Notes: generated from the sequence alone by a model not told the origin. DNA of 64,000 nucleotides from an uncultured Alphaproteobacteria bacterium (GCA_902595755.1 CACJRF010000002.1:10677-74676); one strand, 5' to 3'; shown: positions 7,170 through 64,000, numbered from the stretch's first letter. Numbers and translations are program-made.

Positions 7170-8212
7170 AATAAAGAATTTTCATCTTCAATAGAATATT
7201 TTGCTGAGGTTGCCTCTGAATTTAATTTACTTCTTTTTAAAAGTTCTTTTTGTGCTTTCTCAATATTTGAATCGTTTCCCATCCAGCTTGATAAACATGG
7301 TTGTTGAAGAGCCCTGCCATAGGAAAAACTAATATTCCATTGAGTGCCTTCAGAGTCTTTATTCATTTGGTTTAAATGTTGTGTTGCCAATTCGTTGCTT
7401 TGACCACCTGACAAAAAAACAATTCCAGGAACCTCTTTTGGAACGTTTTCATTTAAACACTTTAAAGTCATAGTGGAAACTTCTTCTACACTAGCTTGCT
7501 GTTCGCACTTTTTTCCCGAGATAACCATATTTGGCTTTAACAGAATACCACCTAAATATACATTTTGTTTATCAAGAGCTTCAAACACTTTTTTTAGAAC
7601 ATTTGATGTAATCTCATAACATGTAACAATATCGTGAGCACCATCCATCAGTACTTCAGGCTCGACTATGGGGACCATTTCATAATCTTGGACAATTTTT
7701 GCATATCGAGAAAGACTGTGAGCATTTAAGTCAATCGAATATTCTGATGGGATGTCATTACTTTTATCTACATCAATTATTGCTCTCCACTTAGTAAATT
7801 CTAGGTTTTGAGAATAGTACTTTTCTAAGCGTTTTTGAAGCCCGTCTAGTCCTTCAGTCACTTTTTCAAAAGATTTCTTTTCAACAGGAACGGCACCAGT
7901 ATCAACTTTTATACCTGGTATAATTCCAATACTTTTCAAGTACTGAGGAAAATACACTCCATCGGTTGTAGTTTGATGAACTGTTTCATCATAAAGAATA
8001 ACACCGCTTATATACTTATTTAAATTTTCTGAAGTGAATAATAATTCTCTATATCTTCTTCTATTTTCATTATTTGACTCTACATTAATTGTGTCAAATC
8101 TTTTCGTAATAGTGTTAGTACTTTCATCAGCCGCTAGTATACCTTTTGGTGAGTTCGAAAGAGTATTAGCTATAGAATTGAGTTTTTCTTTATTCATATT
8201 AATTTTAGTCAT
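7166..8212 (-). CDS. fba: fructose-bisphosphate aldolase, class I (Schiff-base type)
   Basis: 348 aa with GILAADESTNTITKRF and the Schiff-base lysine context LLKPNMV, both typical of class I FBA. Confidence 0.9.
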   Translation of the reverse strand: MTKINMNKEKLNSIANTLSNSPKGILAADESTNTITKRFDTINVESNNENRRRYRELLFTSENLNKYISGVILYDETVHQTTTDGVYFPQYLKSIGIIPGIKVDTGAVPVEKKSFEKVTEGLDGLQKRLEKYYSQNLEFTKWRAIIDVDKSNDIPSEYSIDLNAHSLSRYAKIVQDYEMVPIVEPEVLMDGAHDIVTCYEITSNVLKKVFEALDKQNVYLGGILLKPNMVISGKKCEQQASVEEVSTMTLKCLNENVPKEVPGIVFLSGGQSNELATQHLNQMNKDSEGTQWNISFSYGRALQQPCLSSWMGNDSNIEKAQKELLKRSKLNSEATSAKYSIEDENSLL

Positions 8213-9401: not shown

Positions 9402-11362
9402 TAAAAAAATTTCTCCATTATTTTTTTTAAAATTTGTTTATCTTCTAGACCAAAATGGGCATAAACATCATTACCCTTTCCTGACTCTCCAAAAAGATTC
9501 ACACCAAATATCAAATCATTCTCTCCTGAATACTTATACCACGTATCTGAACTACCTGCTTCAATAAATACTCTTGGAAGGTTACTAAGAATTTTATCCT
9601 TATAAGCTTGATTTTGAGAATCAAATAACCGAGTGCATGGAACTGAAATTATATCGGAATTTATATTATTATCCTTTAGAAGTTTACTAGTTTTTACTGC
9701 GATCTCCACTTCTGAACCACTTGCAAATAATGATACTTTGCTATCTTTATTTTTATCTAGATAATAAGCCCCCATCATAGATTTATTTGTTTTAAATTCT
9801 TTTCTTATTAAAGGTAAATTTTGTCTTGAAAGAGCTAGCACTGACGGTGTATCATGAGAATTTAGAGCTATTTCCCATGCCTCAAAAGTCTCGATCTGAT
9901 CGCAAGGTCTTAGTACATTTAAATTTGGTATAGATCTAAGACTTGCTAAGTGTTCAATTGGTTGGTGTGTTGGCCCATCCTCTCCAAGACCAATTGAATC
10001 ATGTGTAAAAACATATATTACCTTTTGTTTCATCATAGCGGATAATCTTATTGAGTTTCTACAATAATCTGAAAAAACTAAAAAGGTTCCACCATATGGT
10101 ATATACCCACCATGCACAGAGATACCATTCATTGCAGCAGCCATGAGGTGTTCTCTTACACCGTAATGGATATAATTTGAGTTTTTTCCTTTTATCGCAG
10201 ATGATTGTACTTTGGTTAAATTAGATCCAGTTAAGTCTGCAGATCCTCCTAAGAGATTAGGAATTTGGGTATAAAAGTAGTTAATACAATTTTGAGATGA
10301 TTTTCGAGTTGCTTCACTAGTATTTAATTTAACAATATTTTCAAGGAAATTATGAGTATTTTTATTTCTTTTAATTTTAAAATTTTTAAATTGACTTAAA
10401 AATTTTTTTTTCAATTTTGAGTTATTTAGTTTGTTTTCCCAGCTCATTCTTTTTTTGACGTTCCTGTTCGAAACTTTTTCCCAATATTTTTTAATATGTT
10501 TTGGTATGAAAAATTTTTTATGAGGCCAATTAATGTTTTGTTTTGTTAATAAACTTTCATTAGAGCCCAAGGGTGATCCATGGCAGGTTTCTTTGCCAGA
10601 TTTATTTGGAGACCCATAACCAATTATTGTTTTGCAAATTATTAATGAGGGCTTTGGTGATTTTATAGCTTTAGAAATAGTTTCAAATATTTCTTTAAAG
10701 TTATGTCCATTAACATTAAATGTATCCCAATTAGATGCCTCAAATCTTTTCTTTTGATCGTCTGAGCATGTAAGGTTTGTTGGTCCATCAATTGAAATAT
10801 TATTATCATCAAAGAAAACAATCAGTTTATTTAGTTTTAGATGTCCTGCTAATGATATTGCTTCTTGAGATATCCCTTCCATAAGACAGCCATCTCCAGC
10901 TATAACCCATGTCTTATGATCAACTAGGCTTCCATACTTTTTATTTAAAAGTTTTTCTGAAATAGCCATCCCGACAGCATTAGCTAAACCCTGACCAAGA
11001 GGACCAGTAGTTGTTTCAATACTATCAAGCATTCCATATTCTGGGTGACCTGCGGTTTTACTTCCAAGTTGTCTAAATTTTTTTATTTGATTGAGATTGC
11101 AATCTTTATATCCAAGTAGATACGATAACGCATATAAAAGCATAGAACCGTGTCCTGCAGATAAGACAAATCTATCCCTATCAATCCATTTTGGTTTATC
11201 AGAATCAAATTTTAAAAAAAAAGAGAACAAAATAGTTGCAATGTCTGCCATTCCCATTGGCATTCCAGGATGCCCAGAGTTTGCATTTTCAATGGCATCA
11301 ATTGATAGTGCTCTTATAGAATTAGCCATCTCTGTCAAAATTTTTTTATTATTGATATTCAT
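9401..11362 (-). CDS. tkt: transketolase
   Basis: 653 aa with SGHPGMPMGMADIA and the ThDP motif GDGCLMEGISQEA. Confidence 0.95.
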   Translation of the reverse strand: MNINNKKILTEMANSIRALSIDAIENANSGHPGMPMGMADIATILFSFFLKFDSDKPKWIDRDRFVLSAGHGSMLLYALSYLLGYKDCNLNQIKKFRQLGSKTAGHPEYGMLDSIETTTGPLGQGLANAVGMAISEKLLNKKYGSLVDHKTWVIAGDGCLMEGISQEAISLAGHLKLNKLIVFFDDNNISIDGPTNLTCSDDQKKRFEASNWDTFNVNGHNFKEIFETISKAIKSPKPSLIICKTIIGYGSPNKSGKETCHGSPLGSNESLLTKQNINWPHKKFFIPKHIKKYWEKVSNRNVKKRMSWENKLNNSKLKKKFLSQFKNFKIKRNKNTHNFLENIVKLNTSEATRKSSQNCINYFYTQIPNLLGGSADLTGSNLTKVQSSAIKGKNSNYIHYGVREHLMAAAMNGISVHGGYIPYGGTFLVFSDYCRNSIRLSAMMKQKVIYVFTHDSIGLGEDGPTHQPIEHLASLRSIPNLNVLRPCDQIETFEAWEIALNSHDTPSVLALSRQNLPLIRKEFKTNKSMMGAYYLDKNKDSKVSLFASGSEVEIAVKTSKLLKDNNINSDIISVPCTRLFDSQNQAYKDKILSNLPRVFIEAGSSDTWYKYSGENDLIFGVNLFGESGKGNDVYAHFGLEDKQILKKIMEKFF

Positions 11363-12327
11363 TAGTTTTCCAAAATAAATTTTCCAAATGCTCTAGGTCC
11401 ACCAGATGTTTGTATTTTTTTTAAAACATTTAATGATTCTAAATCTAAAAGGGTGATATTATCTTCAAACCAACAAGCAATAACGATTAGTTTGTGTTTA
11501 TAACTTATATCAATACCCTCTGGGTATTCACAAATTTCATTTTTAGTTTTTATATTTTTATAATCATGCATGTCTATAATCGATATACTATTTGACCTTT
11601 GATTAGTAACATATAAATGATTTTTTGTGAAGTCATAGACAGCTTGATATGGCCAATCTCCTACTTTTATATTTTTTATTAAATTATGATTAGTTTTATC
11701 AATCACAGAAATAGAATTTGATTGAACATTAGTTACTATTAAGAAATCAAGCTCTTTTTCTGAATAAATCCCAAACGGTGCTTTTTCAACATCAATTTTT
11801 TTTTTTAGAACAAGTTTATCGGAATCAATAATATGAATATTATTATCTTCTCTATTAGCAACGTAAATTTCTTTATTTTTATTTGAAATATAAATACCAG
11901 CTGGTGAACTACCTACCTTAACAATTTGCGGTTTAGTATCTTTTTTGCTATCTGTCTTAATAATTGATATTTGATTATCATACCAGTTACTTACCACAAC
12001 CGATTTTATTTTTTCAGAATAGAAAATACCTAACGGACTTTTGCCAGATTCAAAGTTTTTTATTTTAAAGTTTTTAACATTTATTTTAGTTACATTTGCA
12101 CTTTCTGGATTGCTTACATATGCATACCCATTAATTAGATCAAGTGTGATACCTGCAGGTTTATTTCCAACACTAATTTCTTTAATTTTTTTTTGTTCTT
12201 TTAAATCTATGATATCAACTTTATTGCTCTCTTGATTTGTTATAAAAGCATATGAAAAGGAATCATGGGAATATGATGAACCAAAATTGAGAAGTAAAAA
12301 AAATATTAGGCTAATTACCTTCAGCAA
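11362..12327 (-). CDS. exported YVTN-family beta-propeller repeat protein
   Basis: 321 aa. N-terminal signal peptide. Repeated YVSN/YVAN/YVTN blades (YAYVSNPESANV, IYVANREDNNI, LYVTNQRSNSI). Confidence 0.75.
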   Translation of the reverse strand: MLKVISLIFFLLLNFGSSYSHDSFSYAFITNQESNKVDIIDLKEQKKIKEISVGNKPAGITLDLINGYAYVSNPESANVTKINVKNFKIKNFESGKSPLGIFYSEKIKSVVVSNWYDNQISIIKTDSKKDTKPQIVKVGSSPAGIYISNKNKEIYVANREDNNIHIIDSDKLVLKKKIDVEKAPFGIYSEKELDFLIVTNVQSNSISVIDKTNHNLIKNIKVGDWPYQAVYDFTKNHLYVTNQRSNSISIIDMHDYKNIKTKNEICEYPEGIDISYKHKLIVIACWFEDNITLLDLESLNVLKKIQTSGGPRAFGKFILEN

Positions 12328-12835
12328 TTTTTTTTAAACCTTTTAGATTACCTTCAATAAACTTGGTAACTTTAATTTTTGAATTTTCGTCATTTAACTC
12401 TGTGGGTGGGTCATTTCCCATAAATCCTCTGTAAAAACCTGACTTGTAGGTAATGTTTGTTGTATTAGAATCAATACTTTTTACAAATATTTTAGCAGCA
12501 TAACTATTAACAGGTAAAGCTTTATTATCAGTTTCAATAACTCTCCAACTGACCATCATTTTGTCGGTATTAATTTTTTCTAATTTCTGTTTAACTTTTG
12601 ATCCATTTTTAAAGCTAATAATCCTTTCGGAACCAACCTTATTTCCATTAGATTCGGATTTTTCAACTTCTTCATTCCAAGTGAACTCCTCAAAATTTGA
12701 GACAATTTTCCAAACTTCAGAAGCTGGCGCCTTAACATTTAATTTTAAAGAAACTTTTTGTCTAGAAGGTCCATGTGCCAATAAATCCTGACTGAAAAGT
12801 AAAGGCACAAAAAAACATAGCAGTATTCTTAACAT
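12311..12835 (-). CDS. exported SRPBCC (START/Bet v1-like, polyketide cyclase/lipid-binding fold) protein
   Basis: 174 aa. Signal peptide ends ..LLAHG. The block VKAPASEVWKIVSNFEEF is typical of the SRPBCC N-terminal strand-helix. Confidence 0.6.
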   Translation of the reverse strand: MLRILLCFFVPLLFSQDLLAHGPSRQKVSLKLNVKAPASEVWKIVSNFEEFTWNEEVEKSESNGNKVGSERIISFKNGSKVKQKLEKINTDKMMVSWRVIETDNKALPVNSYAAKIFVKSIDSNTTNITYKSGFYRGFMGNDPPTELNDENSKIKVTKFIEGNLKGLKKIAEGN

Positions 12836-51546: not shown

Positions 51547-51810
51547 TTATTCTTTTAAATCTTCAAGCCAAGCTGCTGCAAGTAACTGCCTTATTCTAAT
51601 AACATTCGAATTCAATTTTTCAGGTAAACTGACCTCTTTTTTTTTTTTTTTAATAGAGGCATCTAACCATAGCATTTCAATTGACTCTAATAGGTTTATC
51701 TTTTCTTGGTCAGACTTGTCGAAAAGCTCCTGTATTGATATTTTTATTTTATTTAAATCTTTATCATGCTCCATATTTAACTGCGATCTCAAATAAATCT
51801 CTTGTTTCAT
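51547..51810 (-). CDS. hypothetical small helical protein
   Basis: 87-aa ORF. The start may be the internal Met (MEHDKDL.., 51774), which overlaps the stop of the upstream 48-aa ORF. Confidence 0.35.
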   Translation of the reverse strand: MKQEIYLRSQLNMEHDKDLNKIKISIQELFDKSDQEKINLLESIEMLWLDASIKKKKKEVSLPEKLNSNVIRIRQLLAAAWLEDLKE

Positions 51811-51940: not shown

Positions 51941-52189
51941 ATGAAAAATAGATTAAATAAATCATTATCAAGGTTAAAAAAGGAAAAACTTGTTAAAGAA
52001 GATAAAGACTTAATTAGTAAAAAAATCACTCCATTTGAATTTAAAATATTTAAAACTTTGTCTGATAAATATGATTTATCTCTATCAAATTCCAATGAAA
52101 AAACATCCCTTAAGGAAAGTAAAGAATTATCTAGTGACCAAAAAAAGACATTAAATAGAATAAAAAGGGGAGAGAAATTCGAAATATAA
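51941..52189 (+). CDS. hypothetical Lys/Ser-rich protein
   Basis: 82-aa ORF. Preferred over the fully overlapping antisense 103-aa ORF because its composition is protein-like for this genome, whereas the antisense frame is Phe/Leu-rich, as expected for the complement of a Lys-rich frame. Confidence 0.3.
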   Translation: MKNRLNKSLSRLKKEKLVKEDKDLISKKITPFEFKIFKTLSDKYDLSLSNSNEKTSLKESKELSSDQKKTLNRIKRGEKFEI

Positions 52190-52314: not shown

Positions 52315-52641
52315 TTGATGTGGAAAAAAAAATTAATTAAATCAAGCGGAATGCTGTTTTTGTATAAAAAACCACAAATTGTTAATATTTGGATGCATAA
52401 TACTTTTATACCACTTGATATAATTTTCATTGATAAAAATAAAAAAGTTTCAAGTATAAAAGTAGGTAAACCACTGTCGAGAAAAATTATTTCATCTGAT
52501 AAAAAAGTTATTGCTGTGTTAGAGTTGCCTCAAAATTGTTCCAAAAAAATAAGTTTAAACATAGGAGATAAATTAGACTGGATTTATTTAAAATTTTCTA
52601 AAAAAAAAACTTACCATTGTTTATCTTATGATAAAGATTAA
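52315..52641 (+). CDS. DUF192 (COG1430) family protein
   Basis: GLMW.K.L....GMLF......IWM.NT.IPLDIIFID block. The open frame extends upstream to 52159 and encodes a signal-peptide-like IIICFIIITFFHGVNA, but has no ATG/GTG/TTG there (see findings). Confidence 0.65.
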   Translation: MMWKKKLIKSSGMLFLYKKPQIVNIWMHNTFIPLDIIFIDKNKKVSSIKVGKPLSRKIISSDKKVIAVLELPQNCSKKISLNIGDKLDWIYLKFSKKKTYHCLSYDKD

Positions 52642-52661: not shown

Positions 52662-53156
52662 ATGGGGAATTCAATAGATAAATACAGTAAAAATGATCCT
52701 ATATTCAAAGCAGAATTTTCAGAATATATACAAAATTTAAAGTTAGAGAATCAGGATGAACATGATAACTTGTATAAAACAATTTCTTCTCTCAGAGATC
52801 AACTTGATGAATCAAAGTTTACTCTAAAAAATAATGTCCAAGAGGCTATAAGTTCAAAAAATGATGAAATTAATCAATTAAAGTCTACGATTACAGAATT
52901 AAGGCATCAATTAGATAAAGCTCAGCACGAAAAAAAAACAGCTATTCAAAAACAAATACAATCAAGTGCTGATGAAATAAATCAGTTGAAAAAATCATGT
53001 CAGGTTTTAAGAGATGAGCTTGAGACATTAAAATTTGAAAAAAAAGAGGCTATTCAAAAAACAATTTTAAATTCATCTGATGAAATTAATCAGCTTAAGG
53101 AATCAACTCAAAAACTAAGAGATGAACTAGAAACTATTATTAAAAAATTAAAATAA
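52662..53156 (+). CDS. coiled-coil protein with three internal ~37-aa repeats
   Basis: 164 aa. The unit S..DEINQLK.S...LR.ELE....EKK.AIQK occurs three times. The stop overlaps the cyclase start (TAATG). Confidence 0.7.
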   Translation: MGNSIDKYSKNDPIFKAEFSEYIQNLKLENQDEHDNLYKTISSLRDQLDESKFTLKNNVQEAISSKNDEINQLKSTITELRHQLDKAQHEKKTAIQKQIQSSADEINQLKKSCQVLRDELETLKFEKKEAIQKTILNSSDEINQLKESTQKLRDELETIIKKLK

Positions 53157-55459
53157 TGAAAAGAACAACAAAAAATATATTTCCTAATGAAGAAATTAAA
53201 AAAGTTAAGTGTTTACTAGAAATTTCAAGAAAAATTGGAGCACTTAAAGAATTATCACATATACTCTGGACTATTATTGATTTTGCAACGGAAAACGTCA
53301 ATGCTGATAGAGGGTCAATATTTTTAAATGATTCAGAAACAAATGAATTATACTCAAGAGTTGCTCAAGGAGATTTAACTAGAGAGATAAGGATATTAAA
53401 TAATGTTGGTATTGCAGGTTCAATATTCCAGAGTAAGCATGGAGAGATAATTCATGACGTTTATAGCGATAAAAGGTTTAATAAGGATGTAGATCAAGAA
53501 ACTGGTTATAAAACAAAAAATATGATTTGTTCCCCCGTTAAAACCGTCGATGGAAAAACTATTGGTGTTATTCAAGTTTTGAATAAGAAAAAGGGAAGGT
53601 TTAGTAAAGCAGATTTGAATTTAATAAATGATATTTCAACTCAGGCTGCAATTTCGATTCAAAATGCTCAAAACAATGAGTTTTTTCAAAAGAAACGTGA
53701 ACAGGAAATGGAATTTGTAAGTATTGTTTCAGATGTAACTGCTGAGATTGATTTAAGTTCACTTTTAAAAAGGGTAATGGAAGAGGCCACTAAGATGCTT
53801 AATGCAGATAGAGCGACATTATTTCTTAACGATGAAAAAACACAAGAACTTTTTTCAAGGGTAGCAATGGGAGAGGGCGTTGGTGAAATAAGGTTACCAA
53901 ATTCAGTAGGTATTGCTGGAAGTGTTTTTACTTCAGGGAAGACTATGAACATCCCTTTTGCATACGCAGATTTAAGATTTAATCCGGCATTTGATAAACA
54001 AACAGGCTATTTTACAAGATCTATTTTGTGTGTTCCAATCGTTAACAAAATTGGAAAGGTAATTGGTTGTACTCAAGTTTTAAATAAGAAGGGTGGAAAG
54101 TTTACAGATGAGGATGAATCTAGACTGAAAGCTTTCACCCAGCAAGTTGCTATTGCGCTTGAAAATGCAAAGTTGTTTGATGATGTATCAAAATCAAAAA
54201 AATATAATGAAAGTATGCTCTCAAGTATGTCTAATGGTGTTATTACAATTAATGAAGAAGATGAAATTGTAACCTGTAATAAATCTGGGCTTAAAATTTT
54301 AAGAGTTGTAAGTCCAAATATAATTGGATTAAAATCTGAAAGTTTTTTTAAAGAAAAAAATTCTTGGATTCAGGATAAAATCAATGCTGTAAAAAAAAAT
54401 CATGAACCAGAATTAATTATGGATTGTGAGATTGAAGTATTTAATTCAGAAAATGAAAAAAAAGAATTAGTTTCAGCTAACCTGACCATATTACCATTAA
54501 TTAATGAAGAAAATGAGGGAAGAACAGATTCTCAAAATCAATTTCTCGGAACACTATTGATGCTTGAAGATATTTCATCAGAAAAAAGAATGAAATCTAC
54601 GATGTCAAGATATATGGACCCAGGTATAGCGGATCAACTTTTAGAAGAGGGTGCTGATATTATGGGTGGGTTAGATACAACAGCTACACTTTTATTTTCT
54701 GATCTAAGAAGCTTCACAAATATTACCGAGTCACTTGGAGCGCAAGGAACTGTAAAGCTTTTAAATGAGTACTTTGAAATTATGGTTGAGTGTATTACTG
54801 AACAGGCAGGAATGCTTGATAAGTTTATTGGAGATGCGATTATGGCAGCATTTGGCTTGCCAATAAAACATGAAGATGACGAAGATAGAGGAGTTAAGGC
54901 AGGTATAAATATGATTAAAAGACTATGGCAATGGAATGAAGTTCGCAATAAAGAAGGTAAACCTCCCCTTGATATGGGGTTAGGTTTAAATACTGACAAA
55001 ATTGTAGCTGGAAATATAGGTTCACAAAAAAGAATGGATTATACCATGATAGGAGATGGGGTTAATTTAGCAGCAAGGCTTGAAAGCGCATGTAAACAGT
55101 ACAATGCAAGAATCCTAATTAGTGATTTTACTTTTAAAAAACTAAAAGGAACATATAGAATACGATACATTGATGATGTAGTTGTAAAAGGTAAAACAGA
55201 ACCTGTTGGTGTTCATGAAGTGTTAGATTATCATAATGATAAAACATTCCCAAATTTAATGGATGTTGTGAATCATTTTAATGAGGGTAGAAAAAAATAT
55301 AGAATTGGAGATTTCACATCGTCAATTAGTTCTTTTCAGGAATGTTTAAAGGCTAACTCAAATGATTTACTATCAAAAACATATATTGAAAGGTGTGACC
55401 AATTAATAAAAGAAAAGCCAACAAACTGGGATGGGGTTTGGGTCATGAAAAGTAAATGA
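53156..55459 (+). CDS. soluble GAF-GAF-PAS class III adenylate cyclase
   Basis: 767 aa with no TM segment. Two GAF domains (ADRGSIFLND..ELYSRVAQG / ADRATLFLNDE..ELFSRVAMG). A PAS-like segment (MLSSMSNGVITINEEDEIVTCNKSG). Cyclase homology domain with metal Asp residues (LLFSDLRSFT, KFIGDAIMAAFG) and the transition-state block GDGVNLAARLES. Confidence 0.9.
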   Translation: MKRTTKNIFPNEEIKKVKCLLEISRKIGALKELSHILWTIIDFATENVNADRGSIFLNDSETNELYSRVAQGDLTREIRILNNVGIAGSIFQSKHGEIIHDVYSDKRFNKDVDQETGYKTKNMICSPVKTVDGKTIGVIQVLNKKKGRFSKADLNLINDISTQAAISIQNAQNNEFFQKKREQEMEFVSIVSDVTAEIDLSSLLKRVMEEATKMLNADRATLFLNDEKTQELFSRVAMGEGVGEIRLPNSVGIAGSVFTSGKTMNIPFAYADLRFNPAFDKQTGYFTRSILCVPIVNKIGKVIGCTQVLNKKGGKFTDEDESRLKAFTQQVAIALENAKLFDDVSKSKKYNESMLSSMSNGVITINEEDEIVTCNKSGLKILRVVSPNIIGLKSESFFKEKNSWIQDKINAVKKNHEPELIMDCEIEVFNSENEKKELVSANLTILPLINEENEGRTDSQNQFLGTLLMLEDISSEKRMKSTMSRYMDPGIADQLLEEGADIMGGLDTTATLLFSDLRSFTNITESLGAQGTVKLLNEYFEIMVECITEQAGMLDKFIGDAIMAAFGLPIKHEDDEDRGVKAGINMIKRLWQWNEVRNKEGKPPLDMGLGLNTDKIVAGNIGSQKRMDYTMIGDGVNLAARLESACKQYNARILISDFTFKKLKGTYRIRYIDDVVVKGKTEPVGVHEVLDYHNDKTFPNLMDVVNHFNEGRKKYRIGDFTSSISSFQECLKANSNDLLSKTYIERCDQLIKEKPTNWDGVWVMKSK

Positions 55460-56175
55460 GAGAATATCCTCTCGAAAAAAATATGCCTAGCCTTAATTAT
55501 ATTATAAATAATTGGCCAAGATCAAAACCTATTCTGAAAAAGTTTGTGCTTTCTAAACATTCAGCACCAGATCTGTTAAATATTTGTCAATTATGTCTCA
55601 AAGAACTGAAAGTTTTTAGAGAAAAAAAAATTAATTTTATTTTGAGTAAAGTATCTAAAATTTGTTCGATAAATAAAACTTACAACACCTATCATAATAG
55701 CCATCACCTCAAGGCTGTAATTGTAACTGCCTGTATTATTGCAAAAAATAATGAATTATCTAAAAGAGATAAAGTGTTATTAGTTATAATTTCTTTATGT
55801 CATGATATTGGGCATCAAGGAAGAAGAATAATTTCAAGACCTTATTACCAAGAGGAATTGAGTTACCATGTATTTAGGAGATTTTTCTATAAGGTGTTTT
55901 CTAAAAAAAAAGAACTTCAAAGAATTTTAAGAATATTTAGAAATACGTACTTTCCTGAAAAACCAGAAAAAGTTAATGATAAATTAGAAAAAATCATACT
56001 TGATGCTGATATTTTATCCTCATTGATGTTTGATGTGAATACAGGATTAGAATTTGCAAGGAGACTTAAGCATGAATTAAAAATGAAATCTACTTCTGAA
56101 GAGTTATTTGAGTCCTTTCTAAACTCAATCAACAATAAAACATTATATATGGATAGATCAAAAAATTTATGCTAA
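55456..56175 (+). CDS. HD-superfamily phosphohydrolase with class I cyclic-nucleotide phosphodiesterase-like motifs
   Basis: 239 aa with YHNSHHLKAV, then LCHDIGHQG 38 aa later, then ILDADIL. Compare the PDE class I blocks YHN..HAADV / HD.DH.G / LATDM. ATGA overlap with the cyclase gene. Confidence 0.55.
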   Translation: MREYPLEKNMPSLNYIINNWPRSKPILKKFVLSKHSAPDLLNICQLCLKELKVFREKKINFILSKVSKICSINKTYNTYHNSHHLKAVIVTACIIAKNNELSKRDKVLLVIISLCHDIGHQGRRIISRPYYQEELSYHVFRRFFYKVFSKKKELQRILRIFRNTYFPEKPEKVNDKLEKIILDADILSSLMFDVNTGLEFARRLKHELKMKSTSEELFESFLNSINNKTLYMDRSKNLC

Positions 56176-57551
56176 AGATTAAATCTACAGTGACGTTAAG
56201 AATTATACACAATTTATTTTTTGTGGATATGTTAAATTTTGGTAAAGTTATGATTTTACAAAAAGTTGCATTTGTTTTTTTTACTTTTCTTGTTTTTGAA
56301 GCAAATTCTCAAGACAAAGCTTTTGATCTTAAACGGTCTATAGAAAAAGTACTCATAAATCACAAAACAATTCTGGCCTCTAAAACTGATATAGAGGCGG
56401 CTAAACTAAGAATTAAACAATCTAGGGGAGGATATTTCCCATCGCTTGATGTAACAGCAAATTATGGTCATGAAAATATTATAAAATATGGACCAGGAAA
56501 TAATACACAACTAGCAGCAAGAGATGCAACTGCAAAAATTACACAAACACTATCTGATTTCGGATTGACCGAATCAACTGTGAAAACCTCTAAACTTTCT
56601 TTGAAACAAACTAGAGCATTAGAAAGGCAAATAAAAAATGATATTCTTCTTAGAGCCTTAACAGCTTACCTGAGGGTAATTCAGTCAAGAGAAAGTGTAA
56701 AATTTGCAAAACAGTCTGTTGAGAATATTAAAAAACAAACAGAGTTAGAAGACGCTGCTGTAAATGCTGGTGGAGGTTTAACATCAGATGTTTTACAGGC
56801 AAAAACTCAATTAGCTGGTGCTCAAGCAAGGCAAATTCAATTTGAGGGAGTCCTAGATGCTGCAAAACATGAATTTGTATATATTTTTGAGACATTCCCA
56901 AGAGATTTAGAATCTTTAAAATTAATAAAATCTATATTTAACAGGTTGCCCAAAACTTTAGATGAAGCAGAAAAAATAGTCCTTAAAAACAATCCCTCTT
57001 TAATTGCAGCAAGAGTTTCTACTGAAATAAGTAAAGAAGCTATTAATACTGCGAGGGCATCACTTTTTCCTAAAATCAAAGGAATAATAAGTCATTCTGA
57101 AAAACAAGATTTTGGAGGTATAGTTGGTTTTAAAAGAGAAAGTTCAGCTAAGATAGATTTTTCATATCCATTAAATTTAAGTTTTTCTGAATATGCTGGA
57201 AAAGATGCAGCTGTTCAATCATATTTGTCAACACAGACTAGAATTAAAGACCAAGAGGATATGATAACACAGATGTTAAGAACAACTTGGGATGGCTTGT
57301 CAACTGCACAAAAAAATGCAGAATTTTTGTCAAATCAAGCAAGAATCTCTGGAGAGTTTCTCGAACTAGCAAGAACAGAGAGAAAAGCAGGGAACAGAAC
57401 ACTTTTAGATGTTTTGAATGGAGAGACGGCTTTTATTAACTCTCAATCTGATGCAATTGCTGCAAAAATTGAGGTTTTAATAAATAGTTTTACACTTTTA
57501 AGTTTAATGGGAGGATTAACACTAGACAATATTGAACTTGAAAAAAATTAA
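56169..57551 (+). CDS. TolC-family outer membrane protein, type I secretion-associated
   Basis: 460-aa maximal ORF. The likely start is an internal Met (56229 or 56250; signal peptide [20 protein letters not shown]). Two OEP repeats. Ends 3 nt before the first RTX protein gene. Confidence 0.85.
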
Positions 57552-57553
57552 AA

Positions 57554-60511
57554 ATGCTTTCTGATAAAAATATAAATAAAAATCAATCTAATCAATTGGT
57601 TAACAAGCACTACTCAGGCAATGGATTAGATATAAAGAATGCTCCCGAATGGCTTCCTAAAGCAAGCTTTTCAAGAAATGATACAGATTTAATTGCAACT
57701 AATTCAAACTTTGAATCTTATATTTTCATAGATTATTTTACTAATTTTGAATTACCTTCAATATTTACCAATAACGGCTTGATGTTAAAAGGTAATCTTG
57801 TCGAAACTTTAGCTGGAGCACTTTCTAAAGCTCAGTACGTTCAAGCCGCAAGTGGAGAAATTCTTTCTATCGGCGAGGTTTCAACAAAGGAAGGTTCTAT
57901 AATTGCAACAAGATTAGATGGAACTTCAACAGAATTAAATATTGGGGATCCAGTATTTCAAGGTGACACTATTGAAACGGTTGGTAGTGGCTCAGTTGGT
58001 CTTGTTTTTTTAGATAAAACTACCCTATCACTATCGGATGGTGGAAAAATGGTGCTTGATGAGTTAATTTTTGATCCAGCGACAGGCAATGGTAGCATGG
58101 CAGTTGACATGTTAGAAGGAGCATTTAGTTTTGTTAGTGGAGAAATAGCTAAAACAGGACCTGATGCAATGAAAGTTTCTACTCCTGTCGCAACTATTGG
58201 TATCAGAGGAACTACAGTAGCTGGAAAGGCAGCCGTTGAGGGTAATCAGAATTCATTTACTTTACTCCAGGATGCAGATGGTGGAGTAGGACAAATTTCT
58301 GTAAGTAACGATGGAGGAACTCAGGTTTTACAACAAGTTGGTGCTACAACTAGTATATCCAGTTTTACAGCACCTCCACCCCCTCCGATCATTTTAACAG
58401 CAGCACAAATTCAAGCTAATTATGGTACTGCACTTAATGTACTTCCCCCAACACCAACCGTAGCTCCAACACCTCAGACTGCCCCAGCACCCCCACAAGA
58501 AGAACAAGAGCAACAGGTTCAAGAAGAATCTCAAGAGGAAGAGTCTACAGATGAAGATGTATCTGAAGATGAATCATCTGTAGGTTCTGATGAGGAAGGC
58601 CAACCAGAAGGCGAAGAACTACCGGAAGGTGAAGGACCACCGGAAGGTGAAGACCTACTAGAAGGTGAAGGACCACCAGTTGGACCAGATGGAGAACCAC
58701 TTCCTCCAGGTGAAGGAGGCCCTCCATTGGGGCCAGACGGAGAACCACTTCCTCCAGGTGAAGGAGGCCCTCCATTGGGGCCAGACGGAGAACCACTTCC
58801 TCCAGGTGAAGGAGGCCCTCCATTGGGGCCAGACGGAGAACCTTTACCCCCAGGTGAGGGTGGGCCACCTTTAGGAGCAGATGGAGAACCATTATCCCCA
58901 GAGCAAGAAAATGCAGGTAGGGAGGCATTTCAACAAGCATTAGCTGATGGTGCAACCCCAGAGGAAGCTATGGCAGCAGCCGCAGAAGCTGCAGGTTTTG
59001 ATGGTCCAATACCTCCAGGAGGCCCAGAAGGAGATTTTGGTCCAGGAGGACCACAAGGACCAGGTGGTCCAGGAGGAGATTTTGGTCCAGGAGGACCAGG
59101 AGAACCGGGTGGTCCAGGAGGAGATTTTGGTCCAGGAGGAGATTTTGGTCCAGGAGGAGATTTTGGTCCAGGAGGACCAGGAGAACCGGGTGGTCCAGGT
59201 GGAGATTTTGGTCCAGGAGGAGATTTTGGTCCAGGAGGACCAGGAGGACCAGGAGGACCGGGTGGACCGGGTAGTCCAGGTGGAGTTCCATTTGGTGGGC
59301 TTGGATTTGCTGGAGATCCAAGTTCGGATATTTCTGTAAATCCCGGAGGTGATTTTGGTTCTCCTTTTGCTGGTCCGGGAGGCCCGTTAGGTGGTCCAGG
59401 TGGAATAGGGGGATTAAATTCTTCCCCATTTGGTGGTCCTAGTGAAGGATTTAATCCTTCTCCATTTGGTGGCCCTATTGGTTTTGGGCCTGCTGACCCT
59501 TATGGTGCTCCAGGAGGTTTTGGTCCTGATCCATTTGGTGGTCCAGGAGTTTTTGGTCCTGACCCATTTGGTGGTCCAGTTGACCCAATTATGGGTGGAG
59601 GTTATCAAATGGGATTCACAGACCCATTTGGTGGTCCTGTATTTAACGCAATTTATAATGATTTTGGTGGAGGTTTTATAGAGGCATACGGAGATAGTTC
59701 ATATATGATGGAACCAGTTTATTTTTTTGATGATCCAGCTCTTTATGATGATTATATTCCACCAGGAGAGTTTGAGGAGGAATATCAAACTGAGGAACTT
59801 AATCAAACTGACTTTACTCTAAGTGGTACCAGCAGCGCTGACAACATTAGTGCCTCCTCCTCTAATAGCTCTTATACAATTGCTGGTTATAGTGGTGGTG
59901 ATGTTATTACAGGTGGTGCTGGAAATGATGTTTTGTGGGGTGGACTTGGAATTGATTCTTTGACAGGTGGAGATGGTAATGATCAATTTTACTATACAGA
60001 TTTACTTGAAGGTCCTGATGTAATCACAGATTTTGGTCAGAATGCTGATCAAGATAAACTTCTTTTTGCACATTCACCATCATCTCCCTATACACGTACA
60101 TCAGTAGCTGAAGTACAGGGTGAAATTGGAGATTTTGATTATTCAGCGAATGGAAACATTTTACCGTACGTCTTTGCATTTGAAGATTCCAGTCTTTATG
60201 GGGTAACCAGTAAAAGTGTTTTAGCAACGACTTTAGCAAACGGTAATTTTAAAATTTGGGCTGATCAAGCAAATAATCAAGCTCTTGCAGGTGAGCAGTA
60301 TTTTCTTCTTACACCAGGTGCATCAGACACAGGAATTAATGTTTTTGTTTGGACAGACGGAAAAACCCCGCAAGGACAAAATACTGGAACAAGCGACGGC
60401 GTTGTTGATTCAACTGAGCTTTCATATATAGCTAGCTTAGCTGGTGGAGATACGAGTAACATTACTGGAGATGAATTTGCATTCCAATCAATTTCTGGTT
60501 TTAGTGTTTAA
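57554..60511 (+). CDS. large secreted protein: FecR-like N-terminal domain, acidic + Pro/Gly/Phe-rich repeat spacer, RTX Ca-binding repeats (predicted T1SS substrate), paralogue 1
   Basis: 985 aa with no Cys and no Sec signal peptide. FecR-like block [40 protein letters not shown] (about nt 57870-58230). Tandem [16 protein letters not shown] and GDFGPG repeats. RTX nonapeptides [28 protein letters not shown] (about nt 59890-59996). Confidence 0.85.
57641..58456 (+). repeat. paralogous block A (N-terminal region incl. FecR-like domain), copy 1 of 2
   Basis: Aligns by eye along its whole length with 60746-61565. Long stretches are identical at the amino-acid level (e.g. [35 protein letters not shown]) but differ at many synonymous sites. 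Confidence 0.9.
58682..58900 (+). repeat. in-frame 48-bp tandem repeat ([16 protein letters not shown]), about 4.5 copies
   Basis: Copies at 58682-58729, 58730-58777, 58778-58825 and 58826-58873, plus a partial copy. Copies 2 and 3 are identical at 48/48 nt. Copy 1 differs at 2 synonymous positions. Copy 4 is diverged. Confidence 0.95.
59030..59285 (+). repeat. in-frame 18-bp tandem repeat ggagattttggtccagga (GDFGPG) interleaved with [10 protein letters not shown] units (a 45-bp higher-order unit occurs twice)
   Basis: Direct reading shows at least 7 near-identical GDFGPG units. The unit ggagattttggtccaggaggaccaggagaaccgggtggtccagg is repeated. Confidence 0.9.
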
Positions 60512-60673
60512 ATATTAAATATAGTCCTCCTTGCATTATTTCACTAATAATGTAATATGTGCATGTATTTGCTTTCAAAGTGTAGACATAAAAATAAACT
60601 AAATTAAAAAGTTTAAGTTAATTTCAGTTTAGGTATGATTATTAATAATTCAGATACTAAATAGATCAACTTT

Positions 60674-63649
60674 ATGTTTACAAATCAGATAGACAAGATC
60701 AATAATAAATCAATATTTGCGGGTTCACCTAATCTTATCAAGAATCTTCCGGATTGGTTGCCAAAGGCCGACTTTCACAGATCTTCAAGTGATTTAGTAG
60801 CTAAATCAAGTTCAAATAATGAGCAAATAACATTGGTTGATTATTTTTCTAACTTTGACCTTCCATCAGTCTTAACCAGTAATGGTCTTTTATTAAATGG
60901 TTCACTGTTATCAACTTTAGCAGGGCCAGTTTCAATTGGAAAATATGCTCAAGCAGCTGAAACAGAAGTTCTCTCAATTGGAGAAGTAACAAGTGTCAAC
61001 GGAACGGTTAAGGCTACTAGAGTTGATGGAAACATTTTTGAGTTAAGTGTTGGAGACCCTGTGTTTCAGGGAGATACAATTGAAACTACTGGTAATGGGT
61101 CTGTTGGTTTAGTTTTTATAGATAAAACTACTTTTTCACTATCCGAGGGTGGAAAAATGGTACTTGATGAACTTGTTTATGACTCATCAACTGGAAATGG
61201 TAGTATGACTGTTGATATGTTAGAAGGAGCTTTCAGTTTTATAAGTGGTGAAGTAGCAAAAACTGGACCTGATGCCATGCAACTAAAAACACCAGTTGTA
61301 ACCATGGGAATAAGAGGAACAACAGTGGCTGGTAAGGCAGCAGTTGAAGGTAATGAAAATTCATTTACACTTCTGCAAGATGCAGATGGTGGTGTTGGTC
61401 AAATTTCTGTAAGTAATGATGGAGGAACCCAAGTGTTATCTCAGGTTGGTGCAACAACAGTTGTATCTAGTTTCACCGCAGCTCCACCTCAACCCATAAT
61501 TTTGACAACGGCACAAATCCAGGCAAATTATGGAACAGCTCTTAACGTTTTACCTCCAACTCCAGCTGTAGCACCTCAGCCTCAATCTGCACCACCACCC
61601 CAAGAGGAGGTGCAAGAAGAGGCAACACAAGAAGAAACAGAGGAAGATAGCGATGAGAATTCTGAAGAGGAAGGAAATGAAGATGTATCAGAAGAGGGGG
61701 ACAGTGAATCTGATGGTGAGGAAAATCAATCTGAGGAAGGTCTTCTAGAAGAAGAGGGAGTTGCAGAAGGGGACGGTGAGGCGCTAGAAGGAGAGGGACC
61801 ACCAGAAGGAGAAGGCACTTCTGAAGAGGAAGGTCCTCTAGATGGAGAGGGTCCTCCCCCAGAAGGTGGAGAAGAGGGCCCAGCATTAGGACCTGATGGC
61901 GAAGCCTTATCTTCAGAACAAGAACCTGCTGGGGAAGAAGCATTTGAACAAGCCATAGCAGACGGGGCTACACCGGAAGAAGCTATGGCAGCTGCAGCTG
62001 CAGCTACAGGTTTTGATGGTCCTGCAGCTCCAGGAGAACTAGGAGGCCCTGAAGGACCTGGAGGCCCAGGAGATTTAGGACCTGGAGGCCCGGGAGATTT
62101 AGGACCAGCAGGAGGCACGGGGGATTTAGGGCCAGCAGGAGGTCCTGAAGGACTATCGGGAGGAAATCTTGGTGACCCTTTTAGTAGTCCAGGTAATCCA
62201 GGAAATTTTGGAGTTCCCAGTGGATTTAGTCCCTCTTCATTGGGTGGCCCTGTTGGAGGTTTTAATTCATCTCCATTTAGTAGTCCAGTTGGTTTTGCTG
62301 CTGGCCCTTATGGTGACATTGGAATTGGTCCTGACCCGTTTGGTGGCGTTCCGGGAGGTTTTGGTCCTGATCCATTTGGAAGTCCAATTGGCGGTCCAGA
62401 TTTATTTGGTGGACCCGAACTTGCAGGTTATGAAGATTTGAGTACCATGGAATCTTTCGAACCAATCTTTTTCTTTGATGATCCTTCTTTATATAATGAC
62501 TTTTTAGAACCTCCACTTGAATTAGAAGAGAATCTAGGATCCTCATCTTCTAATGCGGGACAAACTTTAACCGGCGATTCCGGATCTAATGTAATTAATG
62601 GGACTGATGGCGATGATACAATTGATGGAGGCTTAGGTGTTGATACACTAACTGGGGGTAATGGAAGTGATATTTTTGTTTTATCTGATTTTGGTGATAC
62701 AATTACTGATTTCACTACATCAGATTCTTTGAGAATAAATTTTACCTTTGACCCTCCATCAACAACCTATAATGTAGTAAGATCAGATTTCTATACATTT
62801 GAGGCATCTTCTTCTACTGGATCATTGACATGGAACTCCACACCATCAAGTTCTTCACAAATTATAACTGAAACAGAGAGTAACGGTGCATTTAGTAATG
62901 CTCAAGTAATTAGCAGATCTTCTTTTAAAGTTACTGCTAACCCAGAAGTTGGTAATGATACAGATCCTTGGGTAAATATCGAAAGTGGTTATATAAGTAA
63001 TGGTGTTGATATTTTTAAGGTAGATTTACAAGCAGGGGAAAAACTGACAGTTGATGTAGATTATGGTGATTCTTTTAGTAGAAGTTTTGATTCTTATATT
63101 ACAATTTATGATTCAACTTATAACAGTGTAGCTGAAAATGACAACTCATTAGTTTCACAAGGTGGGACAGGAAGTTCTGGAACATTAGATTCATTTGTAG
63201 AATATACAACGAATTCAAATCAAACCCATTATATATTTGTAGAGGATGCTCCCAAGAATTCAAACTCAAATACAACTGGAGACTATGAATTAAATATTAG
63301 TATAACTCCAACTGCTTCATCTACAGGATTAGGTGTGAGTTCGAGTAGTAATGTCGGTGGAAATAACGAATTACCGTATGTAATAAATTTAGTTGAGGAT
63401 ACGAGTAATTACCTTTCAAAAAGTTTCAAAAGTGGTTTGGTTTCTTCTATTAGATATACAAATGCTACAACTAATACTGGAAGTGAAATATTCCTTGTTG
63501 CTGGTGACGGTACAAATAGTGCTATTTGGATGTGGGATGATTTATCACAAGGGTATGGAATAAGTGATAATGAGTTAACATTTGTGGCTCATTTAGAAAA
63601 TTTTGATAATGATAATCTATCAAGCTCACAAATTTCTTTTACGTCATAA
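60674..63649 (+). CDS. large secreted protein: FecR-like N-terminal domain, acidic/Pro-Gly spacer, RTX repeats, PPC (pre-peptidase C-terminal)-like domain (predicted T1SS substrate), paralogue 2
   Basis: 991 aa with no Cys and no Sec signal. The N-terminal ~300 aa are closely similar to paralogue 1. RTX block GTDGDDTIDGGLGVDTLTGGNGSDIFVL (about nt 62575-62690). PPC-like domain ETESNGAFSNAQVI...DIFKVDLQAGEKLTVDV...ITIYDS...GDYELNISI (about nt 62872-63312). Confidence 0.85.
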   Translation: MFTNQIDKINNKSIFAGSPNLIKNLPDWLPKADFHRSSSDLVAKSSSNNEQITLVDYFSNFDLPSVLTSNGLLLNGSLLSTLAGPVSIGKYAQAAETEVLSIGEVTSVNGTVKATRVDGNIFELSVGDPVFQGDTIETTGNGSVGLVFIDKTTFSLSEGGKMVLDELVYDSSTGNGSMTVDMLEGAFSFISGEVAKTGPDAMQLKTPVVTMGIRGTTVAGKAAVEGNENSFTLLQDADGGVGQISVSNDGGTQVLSQVGATTVVSSFTAAPPQPIILTTAQIQANYGTALNVLPPTPAVAPQPQSAPPPQEEVQEEATQEETEEDSDENSEEEGNEDVSEEGDSESDGEENQSEEGLLEEEGVAEGDGEALEGEGPPEGEGTSEEEGPLDGEGPPPEGGEEGPALGPDGEALSSEQEPAGEEAFEQAIADGATPEEAMAAAAAATGFDGPAAPGELGGPEGPGGPGDLGPGGPGDLGPAGGTGDLGPAGGPEGLSGGNLGDPFSSPGNPGNFGVPSGFSPSSLGGPVGGFNSSPFSSPVGFAAGPYGDIGIGPDPFGGVPGGFGPDPFGSPIGGPDLFGGPELAGYEDLSTMESFEPIFFFDDPSLYNDFLEPPLELEENLGSSSSNAGQTLTGDSGSNVINGTDGDDTIDGGLGVDTLTGGNGSDIFVLSDFGDTITDFTTSDSLRINFTFDPPSTTYNVVRSDFYTFEASSSTGSLTWNSTPSSSSQIITETESNGAFSNAQVISRSSFKVTANPEVGNDTDPWVNIESGYISNGVDIFKVDLQAGEKLTVDVDYGDSFSRSFDSYITIYDSTYNSVAENDNSLVSQGGTGSSGTLDSFVEYTTNSNQTHYIFVEDAPKNSNSNTTGDYELNISITPTASSTGLGVSSSSNVGGNNELPYVINLVEDTSNYLSKSFKSGLVSSIRYTNATTNTGSEIFLVAGDGTNSAIWMWDDLSQGYGISDNELTFVAHLENFDNDNLSSSQISFTS
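60746..61565 (+). repeat. paralogous block A, copy 2 of 2
   Basis: See 57641-58456. Confidence 0.9.
62057..62150 (+). repeat. in-frame 24-27-bp tandem repeat (PGGPGDLG / PAGGTGDLG), about 3.5 copies
   Basis: The sequence reads cctggaggcccaggagatttagga / cctggaggcccgggagatttagga / ccagcaggaggcacgggggatttaggg / ccagcaggaggtcct... Confidence 0.8.
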
Positions 63650-63710
63650 ATTTATGAAGAATAAATTATAAAAAAAATTATTTAAGGGTTATAATAGCGT
63701 AGTTAAAAAA

Positions 63711-64000
63711 ATGCTATATTGGCTTGAAATATTAAAAAAAAGCAACTCTCTTGGAATTGTTTTAGTTCTTTCACTTTTAATAACTTTCATGGGGTTATTA
63801 AGCCCAATTTTTATAATTCATATTTTTAATAGGTATATAACTTTTGGTCTTGAGGGAACTTTATATTTTTTAGTTATTGGTGCTCTTTTAGTTGCATCAT
63901 TTGAATTTCTTTTTCGAAATCTACGAAATGCAATTTTTGAGCAAGTTATAATAGGCCCAACTAAAAGTGCAAAATTAGAGATTTTCAACAGGTCATTTGA
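63711..64000 (+). CDS. type I secretion system permease/ATPase (PrtD/HlyB-family ABC transporter), N-terminal fragment, continues past window end
   Basis: Hand-translated from ATG 63711: MLYWLEILKKSNSLGIVLVLSLLITFMGLLSPIFIIHIFNRYITFGLEGTLYFLVIGALLVASFEFLFRNLRNAIFEQ... The pattern (.S..iN.L.L..P.f...v.dRv......tL..L.....) fits TM1-TM2 of T1SS ABC exporters. Its position directly after the RTX genes supports the call. Confidence 0.7.
   Translation, partial: MLYWLEILKKSNSLGIVLVLSLLITFMGLLSPIFIIHIFNRYITFGLEGTLYFLVIGALLVASFEFLFRNLRNAIFEQVIIGPTKSAKLEIFNRSF

Follow-up and report, generated by a model that had tools for sequence, protein, structure and literature searches.

A putative cAMP-associated locus for type I secretion of surface-retained RTX proteins, conserved in a low-GC lineage of marine Alphaproteobacteria

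Introduction

Do cyclic-nucleotide enzymes encoded directly before a type I secretion system (T1SS) act on that system, or do the two sets of genes only lie side by side? The question is raised by positions 52662 to 64000 of a 64,000-nucleotide (nt) stretch of DNA from an uncultured Alphaproteobacteria bacterium (GCA_902595755.1 CACJRF010000002.1:10677-74676). The whole stretch is referred to below as the window, and all coordinates are counted from its first letter. Here, genes for a class III cyclase and an HD-domain protein are followed by genes for a TolC-family channel, two RTX proteins, and an ABC exporter. Our reading, held with somewhat more confidence than doubt, is that this is a conserved locus, associated with cyclic AMP (cAMP), by which RTX proteins undergo type I secretion and are retained on the surface. 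To our knowledge, second-messenger control of T1SS-exported, surface-retained adhesins is known only for cyclic di-GMP (c-di-GMP), in the Lap paradigm.

The host is an abundant, streamlined marine alphaproteobacterium with few regulators. Genomes of the HIMB59/AEGEAN-169 group measure 1.26-1.84 Mb and have a guanine-plus-cytosine (GC) content of 27-32.5% (PMC10308909); the window has a GC content of about 0.28 and a coding density of about 95%. A description of the locus was not found in the literature on T1SS, RTX proteins, or adenylate cyclases of Pelagibacter/SAR11, or on AEGEAN-169/HIMB59.

Gene content and conserved order

The open reading frames (ORFs) proposed in a first-pass annotation of the window are all present on the plus strand, at 52662-53156, 53156-55459, 55456-56175, 56169-57551, 57554-60511, and 60674-63649, with a further one, the ABC exporter, beginning at 63711 as proposed. 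The domain assignments (two GAF domains, cyclase, HD, OEP/TolC, FecR, RTX, and ABC) were recovered with Pfam and NCBIfam, with the exception of a PPC domain (PF04151) at the C-terminus of the second RTX protein, which was not found by Pfam even at E≤1. At the junctions, the stop codon of the coiled-coil gene and the start of the cyclase gene have one base in common within TAATG at 53156, the cyclase and HD genes overlap in an ATGA at 55456-55459, and the spacer between the two RTX genes is 162 nt long (60512-60673), all as first read; the gap between the TolC gene and the first RTX gene is 2 nt rather than 3.

The same annotation described a translationally coupled string. The genes and most of the junctions stand, while the near-zero spacing is not distinctive: a gap of at most 5 nt separates 30 of the 34 other same-strand neighbour pairs in the window (median -1, with longest-ORF starts). 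Since such gaps are the rule in this genome, the spacing carries no information, and it was dropped as a sign of coupling. A row of eight overlapping or abutting genes also lies on the minus strand at 2496-12835, and strings of this kind are ordinary in the genome.

HD homologues on long contigs were compared for gene order, and a scan of species-representative genomes with an alignment of the N-terminal head of the RTX proteins (described below) added four more low-GC loci. In every related locus with enough flanking DNA, the genes follow one another as DUF192, coiled-coil, GAF-GAF-PAS cyclase, HD, TolC, FecR-headed RTX (one gene or two), ABC, and membrane fusion protein (MFP), at 49-66% identity of the HD proteins to that of the window. 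Besides the window species, at least five others have this order (loci L007, L008/L009, L010, L016, and L017), L016 having a single RTX gene rather than two, and the coiled-coil gene lies directly 5' of the cyclase gene in all of them. The outer flanks differ: SecDF adjoins the block only in the window species and L010, and genes for a DNA ligase, a LexA-like protein, and an ImuB-like protein take its place in L008. The linkage of the cyclase/HD pair to the T1SS genes, which the first-pass annotation had made the measure of its proposal, thus holds in relatives despite differing flanks, and supports the cyclase/HD pair and the T1SS genes as one conserved unit.

The secretion system and its cargo

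The TolC-family outer-membrane channel (56250-57551, plus strand; longest ORF from 56169) matches Pfam OEP with 184.9 bits (cut-off 22) and NCBIfam type_I_sec_TolC with 192.5 bits (cut-off 225). The 5' end of the T1SS ABC exporter gene lies at 63711-64000 (plus strand), and this fragment matches ABC_membrane and the NCBIfam LssB and PrtD models. For the part beyond position 64,000, the L001 contig was used, which is identical to the window over their common part. The complete exporter has 531 amino acids (aa) with Pfam ABC_membrane and ABC_tran domains. Its NCBIfam scores for LssB (249.7 bits), PrtD (198.4), and HlyB (164.1) are all under the subfamily cut-offs of 693, 510, and 726, respectively, and it aligns only to positions 141-659 of the LssB model, that is, without a C39-like domain. 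The MFP that had been expected downstream is there: just past the window, L001 encodes a 426-aa HlyD-type adaptor (type_I_hlyD, TIGR01843; 288.3 bits, cut-off 208.65). Together, these genes point to a dedicated, complete T1SS composed of TolC, a short LssB-like ABC protein, and a HlyD-type adaptor. A metagenome scaffold from BATS, as well as single-cell genomes, also encodes proteins identical to the TolC and the second RTX protein.

RTX protein 1 (57554-60511, plus strand; 985 aa) has Pfam matches to FecR (28.1 bits) and HemolysinCabind (28.1 bits, or 36.5 bits when its C-terminal part is searched alone). It consists of a FecR-like beta head of about 300 aa, an acidic Pro/Gly/Glu repeat linker with a GC content of about 48%, and three to four RTX nonapeptides, which are followed by some 170 aa of C-terminal domain. 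RTX protein 2 (60674-63649, plus strand; 991 aa) is a paralogue with the same head and linker and a longer, different C-terminal region. The two proteins are 57% identical overall, and their first 300 or so residues are nearly the same residue for residue. HemolysinCabind is matched at 28-36 bits in both (cut-off 23), and both N-termini are hydrophilic, with no Sec signal visible in the sequence. They had been called giant, which at 985 and 991 aa they are not; truly giant versions, from more than 3,600 to 11,515 aa, occur in relatives.

The linkers are encoded by DNA tandem repeats (58595-59579 and 62053-62142) whose periods are 48, 81, 45, 33, and 24-27 nt, those of 48 and 81 nt occurring in the gene for RTX protein 1; their GC content is about 48%, compared with 28% for the genome. 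The rise in GC of the window to 0.48 at 58-60 kb arises because the middles of both RTX genes are such Pro/Gly/Glu-coding repeats. RTX protein 1 has 985 aa in the window and 967 aa in another strain, whose TolC and RTX protein 2 are identical to those of the window; linker length therefore varies between close strains.

The cyclase and the HD-domain protein

The cyclase gene (53156-55459, plus strand) encodes a soluble protein in which Pfam and PDB matches delimit a GAF-GAF-PAS-class III architecture: the two GAF domains reach 125.7 bits and Guanylate_cyc 79.9 bits, and the PAS_9 match is weak (22.9 bits, cut-off 27). In the PDB, the closest match is to the GAF tandem of Anabaena CyaB2 (1ykd; E value 4.4e-46), the GAF domains of PDE2/5/10 are matched too, and the catalytic domain aligns with those of Cya2 and P. 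aeruginosa CyaB. The specificity pair consists of Lys (in LDKFIGD) and Thr (in MDYTMIGD). P. aeruginosa CyaB has the same two residues, and Cya2, a guanylate cyclase, has Glu and Gly in their place; a reading as guanylate cyclase is ruled out by this pair. In GAF-B, NKKGGKFTDEDE reads as an NKFDE-like motif. On these sequence features, the protein is a CyaB1/CyaB2-like adenylate cyclase with the class IIIb Lys/Thr pair.

The next gene (55456-56175, plus strand) encodes a 239-aa HD-domain protein. Its Pfam HD match has 24.5 bits, and the match to PDEase_I (22.2 bits, cut-off 24.8) covers only the first 49 model positions. The residues H80-N-x-x-H84, H116-D117-x-x-H120, and A184-D185 are invariant in 26 homologues; judged from PDE4, these are the positions that supply class I phosphodiesterases (PDEs) with their general acid and their four metal ligands. 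In the PDB, a profile of the family matches class I PDEs only (RhoPDE 5vyd, E value 2.8e-5; PDE5, 1.6e-4). In a Foldseek search with the AlphaFold2 model (mean predicted local distance difference test, pLDDT, 77.6), the top 50 matches were all catalytic domains of class I PDEs, the best with template modelling (TM) scores of 0.54-0.59. By motifs, profile, and modelled fold, the protein does look like a shortened class-I-like cyclic-nucleotide PDE, in line with the candidate hydrolase of the first-pass annotation.

The family is narrow: 62 clusters reach an identity of 49% or more, E≤1e-3 yields 197 representatives out of 1.84 billion, and some of its distant members pass the PDEase_I threshold (P0308, for example, at 37.0 bits). 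As a family, it is not generally cyclase-linked, since a distant branch accompanies STAS, SpoIIE, and HATPase_c_2 genes. In that branch, members follow STAS/SpoIIE (PP2C)/HATPase_c_2 genes or are fused to HATPase_c_2 (L097 7603-10744; P0262; P0308), and these partner-switching-linked members are found near type IV pilus and type II secretion genes.

The spacer between the HD and TolC genes

An overlap of the HD and TolC ORFs at 56169-56175 had been read as a further coupled junction. It exists only with the longest ORF, and comparison with the starts of orthologous TolC genes identifies it as an artefact. The orthologues have a signal peptide at their very start and in-frame stops upstream, and begin 50-100 nt past the HD stop; on that account, the window gene likely starts at 56250 or 56229, after a spacer of 53-74 nt.

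Within the spacer lies a palindrome, CACA-N10-TGTGG (56208-56226). It is kept in the window (with near-identical copies in L001, L015, and L094), in L007 (at 10780), L008 (10760), L016 (8591), and L017 (8545), that is, in every species with an intact spacer, and the frameshifted L010 has a single match in the corresponding position. Only the N10 differs between loci, the half-sites being invariant; there is one match per locus except in L016, where a second match lies elsewhere. The 64-kb window contains 1 match against 0.44 expected from shuffles of the window. The palindrome sits 20-40 nt 5' of the TolC start, and in most loci it is preceded by TGTCGTT (GTGACGTT in the window). It does not qualify as a canonical CRP site (TGTGA-N6-TCACA), the half-sites being in the opposite order. 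This candidate element could be an operator, an internal promoter element, or a short hairpin, and it could mark a point where the secretion half might be separately regulated.

The first-pass annotation had named a terminator or promoter between 56175 and 56250 as a sign that the string is not one unit. A scan for promoters and terminators gave background-level matches only, and is uninformative in such AT-rich DNA. The conserved palindrome lies exactly in that interval. Of the single transcription and translation unit once proposed, the conserved gene block is retained; the case for translational coupling from HD to TolC is weakened by the spacer and its palindrome.

cAMP genes beyond the window and beside other head genes

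Past the MFP gene, by about 0-5.5 kb, a convergent operon is found on the minus strand of L094 (12448-17926), and likewise in L016 (15690-20881) and L018 (8844-13744). Its genes encode a class III cyclase with a CHASE2 domain, two stand-alone cyclic nucleotide monophosphate (cNMP)-binding proteins (145 and 155 aa), a DUF1538 protein that resembles fused UmpA/UmpB subunits of a cation/proton antiporter, a P-II-like protein, and a 98-aa ORF. The cyclase of L094, from the same strain as the window, scores 129.4 bits for CHASE2 and 66.3 bits for Guanylate_cyc; in the lineage, it is encoded about 3.3 kb past the MFP and thus outside the window. One of the cNMP-binding proteins matches TIGR03896 (cyc_nuc_ocin) weakly, at 29.4 bits against a cut-off of 161. 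Taken by itself, the operon may form a transporter module under cAMP regulation.

Outside the lineage, the head of the RTX proteins is widespread. The scan of species representatives returned at least 519 head loci, nearly all from other Alphaproteobacteria, with Rhodospirillales, Magnetococcales, Terasakiella, Magnetospirillum, Novispirillum, and Roseibium among the hosts. The proteins range from 1,089 to 11,515 aa and carry the head at the N-terminus. Head and RTX repeats occur together in three complete proteins of cultured strains, of which that of Roseibium album adds cadherin/Big_9 extenders. Unbiased clustering of the neighbours in 88 loci gave ABC (26), TolC (22), and MFP (18) as the commonest. 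None of the head loci outside the low-GC lineage was found to have the HD protein.

A head gene has a CHASE2 cyclase as its immediate neighbour in L027, L081, L088, and L091 (GC 0.50-0.66), and in L027 the genes for TolC, head protein, ABC, MFP, and CHASE2 cyclase form one co-directional string. In L019 (Magnetovibrio), a T1SS MFP carries an N-terminal cNMP-binding domain (5404-7164; Pfam, 76 bits) and belongs to a T1SS pair about 2.7 kb upstream of a head-bearing giant gene. Being independent of those in the window's lineage, these CHASE2 and cNMP associations argue for a functional connection between cAMP signalling and head-type T1SS cargo that is not confined to that lineage.

Two other head loci suggest split or frameshifted giant adhesin genes. 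In L011 (12206-14231, from a Magnetovibrio metagenome-assembled genome), an IS1595 transposase and a RhuM-family gene stand between a 410-aa head ORF and an 8,212-aa ORF, and in L014 an Arg-rich tail that looks out of frame closes the head ORF, with an 11,515-aa ORF following it.

On these data, mere co-location has to be weighed. The cAMP enzymes could regulate something else, such as the DUF1538/P-II transporter or general physiology, the T1SS having its own promoter in the HD-TolC spacer and the gene order reflecting descent in a lineage of compact genomes. Several observations are consistent with such an arrangement: overlapping and abutting genes are the default of the genome, the conserved intergenic element falls exactly between the two halves, the window's lineage alone has the HD protein and GAF cyclase beside a T1SS, the genes of the cNMP-binding proteins run in the same direction as those of a transporter and a P-II-like protein, and no effector that joins cAMP to the T1SS was found in the genome. 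Against it, on the other hand, speak the block that is kept at 49-66% HD identity while its outer flanks change, the unrelated high-GC Alphaproteobacteria that place CHASE2 cyclases beside head genes and, in L027, inside the T1SS string itself, and the fusion of a cNMP-binding domain to a T1SS adaptor near a head gene in L019. We therefore regard co-location without a functional link as a serious possibility, though a rather unlikely one.

Retention or release of the RTX proteins

The first-pass annotation described the cargo as FecR-headed. Pfam does report FecR at about 28 bits, and the head is probably better described as a homologue of a retention module. NCBIfam retention_LapA is matched by RTX protein 2 at aa 103-167 (28.7 bits, cut-off 50). 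An AlphaFold2 model of its residues 1-300 (pLDDT 87.3) retrieved with Foldseek both FecR-like anti-sigma domains (2e-5), including the cell-surface signalling domain of PupR, and the structure 5ix9 (34% identity, TM 0.78, root-mean-square deviation 0.9), which shows the domain that anchors MpIBP, an RTX adhesin of Marinomonas, by its N-terminus. A profile of the head family reaches 5ix9 by sequence alone (E value 8.9e-9). From these three independent lines, namely the retention_LapA match, the model comparison, and the profile, the FecR head is likely homologous to the retention module of LapA/MpIBP-type RTX adhesins. Modules of this type need no calcium to fold, and from the periplasm they act as a plug in the outer-membrane channel (bioRxiv 10.1101/2025.09.30.679566). 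Given this homology, the RTX cargo is probably tethered to the surface rather than released.

Following the GIRGT motif of the head, a sequence A-G-x-A-A-x-E-G is near-invariant throughout the family (aa 217-226 of RTX protein 2, GKAAVEG). Its di-alanine could be a protease site, and it sits within predicted beta structure. The LapG cleavage consensus is [T/A/P]AA[G/V], which the motif does not fit.

Free release would make both proteins exoproteins (nutrient-scavenging, S-layer-like, or antagonistic) that leave by a PrtD/AprD-style T1SS and whose head works extracellularly. The short ABC protein without a C39-like domain resembles the exporters of proteases and lipases, the proteins have only about 1,000 residues with three to four RTX repeats, LapG and LapD were not found in the loci, and in lacking Ig-like extenders the proteins fail the canonical definition of an RTX adhesin (bioRxiv 10.1101/2025.09.30.679566). 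The homology of the head to a structurally characterised anchoring domain speaks against release, as do the head proteins of relatives, which from 1,330 aa (L088; cadherin/Big_9 and RTX) up to 11,515 aa have the architecture of retained adhesins. Release is, in our judgement, unlikely.

A retained head could also have a sensory role. It might engage, from the periplasm, the CHASE2 domain of the neighbouring membrane cyclase as partner or ligand, so that contact, pulling, cleavage, or loss of the fibre would cause a cAMP pulse, amplified by the cAMP-activated GAF cyclase, reset by the PDE, and read by the two small cNMP-binding proteins; this would be a surface-sensing circuit on a T1SS channel and would provide the first defined partner for CHASE2 domains. 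CHASE2 cyclases do recur beside the head family in at least four lineages, a cluster of CHASE2 cyclase, FecR-domain, and PDE genes recurs in Campylobacterota (PMC9239204), FecR-type domains are periplasmic modules of protein-protein signalling (compare the PupR match), and the GAF tandem is closest to the cAMP-binding tandem of CyaB2. As a wholly inferential scheme, in which the CHASE2 cyclase of the window lineage is non-adjacent (about 3.3 kb off, on the other strand), about 70 of 75 head loci outside the lineage have no cyclase within 10 kb, and no CHASE2 ligand is known in any system, we consider it clearly improbable.

Proposed function of the locus

For a cAMP-associated secretion locus with surface-retained cargo, the following scheme can be drawn from the identities, homologies, and gene linkages given above, from which we infer its steps of export, tethering, and cAMP effect. 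The RTX proteins would leave C-terminus first through ABC, MFP, and TolC, and once outside, their short beta-roll and variable tip would be folded by calcium. The N-terminal head, already folded and unable to pass, would plug TolC from the periplasmic side, and the long, variable Pro/Gly/Glu linker would tether the protein in place of the Ig-like extenders of classical RTX adhesins. The soluble, GAF-regulated cyclase and the CHASE2 cyclase would, together with the PDE, determine the local cAMP level, which the two cNMP-binding proteins would probably read. In this way, cAMP might govern production, export, or retention of the surface proteins, the role that c-di-GMP has in the Lap system. Transcription of the secretion half would most likely be controlled at the palindrome in the HD-TolC spacer.

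A number of observations weigh against this proposal. The arrangement of GAF cyclase, HD protein, and T1SS is confined to one low-GC lineage, so that common ancestry contributes to its conservation, and outside the lineage a CHASE2 cyclase adjoins the head gene in 4 of about 75 loci, of which two belong to a single genus. An output domain is not recognisable in either cNMP-binding protein. Since their operon also encodes a transporter and a P-II-like protein, the cAMP parts may serve ion transport and not secretion. In the loci, neither a cAMP-responsive transcription factor nor a LapG- or LapD-like protein was found; neither of the latter is a recurrent neighbour among 79 head loci. No CRP-type factor was found in the window or in the loci of the lineage by a query with an E. 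coli CRP sequence, which provides a lead only, and CRP-family regulators appear among the loci only in L023 and L026. Nor was an output domain that would link cAMP to the pump found in this genome. The conserved element in the HD-TolC spacer may be the sign of a separate transcription unit. As for the individual proteins, the TolC and retention_LapA matches fall short of their NCBIfam cut-offs and the HD protein falls short of the PDEase_I gathering threshold, distant members of the HD family adjoin STAS, SpoIIE, and HATPase_c_2 genes instead of cyclases, and the ABC protein lacks the C39-like domain typical of an adhesin-type T1SS. Neither RTX protein has a Big or cadherin Ig-like extender by Pfam, or a clear LapG-type cleavage motif.

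If the proposal is right, the Lap principle would extend to cAMP, with two adenylate cyclases, a class-I-like PDE, and two cNMP-binding proteins. It would provide a testable context for three little-understood parts, namely CHASE2 sensor domains, bacterial class-I-like PDEs, and the widespread FecR-annotated RTX family of Alphaproteobacteria. It would also mean that planktonic oligotrophs spend about 20 kb on regulated surface fibres, which would bear on particle attachment, cell-cell contact, and interactions with phages and grazers.

Other features of the block

The coiled-coil protein (52662-53156, plus strand; 164 aa) has internal repeats and sub-threshold Pfam matches of coiled-coil type. 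Upstream of it, at 52315-52641 (plus strand), a DUF192 (COG1430) protein of 108 aa is encoded from a TTG start (Pfam DUF192, 72.7 bits), and a DUF192 gene holds the same position in L008, L009, L010, L016, and L017. The relatives have 168-183 aa at this ORF versus 108 in the window, and the protein may be N-terminally truncated, or use a different start, in the window strain.

Two small ORFs precede these genes. One (51547-51810, minus strand; 87 aa, hydrophilic) marks the upstream edge of the block and has homologues in L008, L016, and L017. The other (51941-52189, plus strand; 82 aa, Lys/Ser-rich) is found at the same place in those three loci, is a called gene in L001, and is possibly the first gene of the string. 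The homologues of both stay at the edge of the block in L008, L016, and L017, and the outer flanks differ. An Rfam scan of the window detected two tRNAs far upstream, and no riboswitch or leader.

Comparison with known systems

Small cNMP-binding proteins beside an ABC/HlyD cassette are also a feature of the cyc_nuc_ocin bacteriocin-type exporters (TIGR03896), and the L019 locus fuses such a protein to its MFP. In contrast to those systems, the exporter of this locus has no peptidase domain, the cargo consists of RTX proteins and not of leader-peptide bacteriocins, and the cNMP-binding genes belong to a convergent operon.

The window cyclase shares with Anabaena CyaB1/CyaB2 the GAF-GAF-PAS-catalytic architecture, the 1ykd match, the Lys/Thr pair, and the NKFDE-like motif of GAF-B. 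It differs in an imperfect GAF-A motif and in the coupling of its gene to a coiled-coil gene at the 5' side and a PDE gene at the 3' side; we know of no such coupling in the description of CyaB1. With the class I PDEs (PDE2/4/5/9 and RhoPDE), the HD family has in common the invariant metal-site motifs HNxxH, HDxxH, and AD. Its member in the window is about 80 residues shorter than their catalytic domain (239 versus about 320 aa), has no identifiable counterpart of the conserved purine-recognising glutamine, and comes from a small bacterial family whose distant members are tied to partner-switching kinases.

Clusters of genes for a CHASE2 cyclase, a PDE, a FecR-domain protein, and a TPR protein have been described in Campylobacterota (PMC9239204), and in S. 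meliloti the CHASE2 cyclases CyaD1/D2/K act via Clr on the FecR-domain gene SMc02177 (PMC5498481). The present locus resembles the former in bringing together a CHASE2 cyclase, a candidate cAMP PDE, and a FecR-type protein in one neighbourhood. It is unlike them in that the FecR-type domain heads a T1SS-exported RTX protein without a Sec signal, in having no TPR protein, and in the additional soluble GAF cyclase.

The closest parallels are with Lap-type systems, represented by LapA, LapBCE, and LapD/LapG of P. fluorescens and by MpIBP of M. primoryensis. Both encode a dedicated ABC-MFP-TolC T1SS together with its cargo, the cargo of the window has a likely N-terminal homologue of the retention module (5ix9) and a C-terminal RTX region, and enzymes of a nucleotide second messenger are genetically associated. 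The differences concern both regulation and structure. Window-type loci show cAMP enzymes instead of a GGDEF/EAL receptor (LapD) and LapG, a low-complexity Pro/Gly/Glu repeat linker in place of Ig-like extenders, and an ABC protein without the C39-like domain that LapB-type exporters have. The cargo has about 1,000 residues versus several thousand, and its head, at about 300 aa, includes extra FecR-like beta structure.

The first-pass annotation knew of no described system of this composition. This holds insofar as no paper on the locus was found, although the Lap system and the CHASE2/PDE/FecR clusters (PMC9239204) are precedents. Each part is of a known kind, and the combination is best called a new form of second-messenger-linked type I secretion for proteins with a probable retention module.

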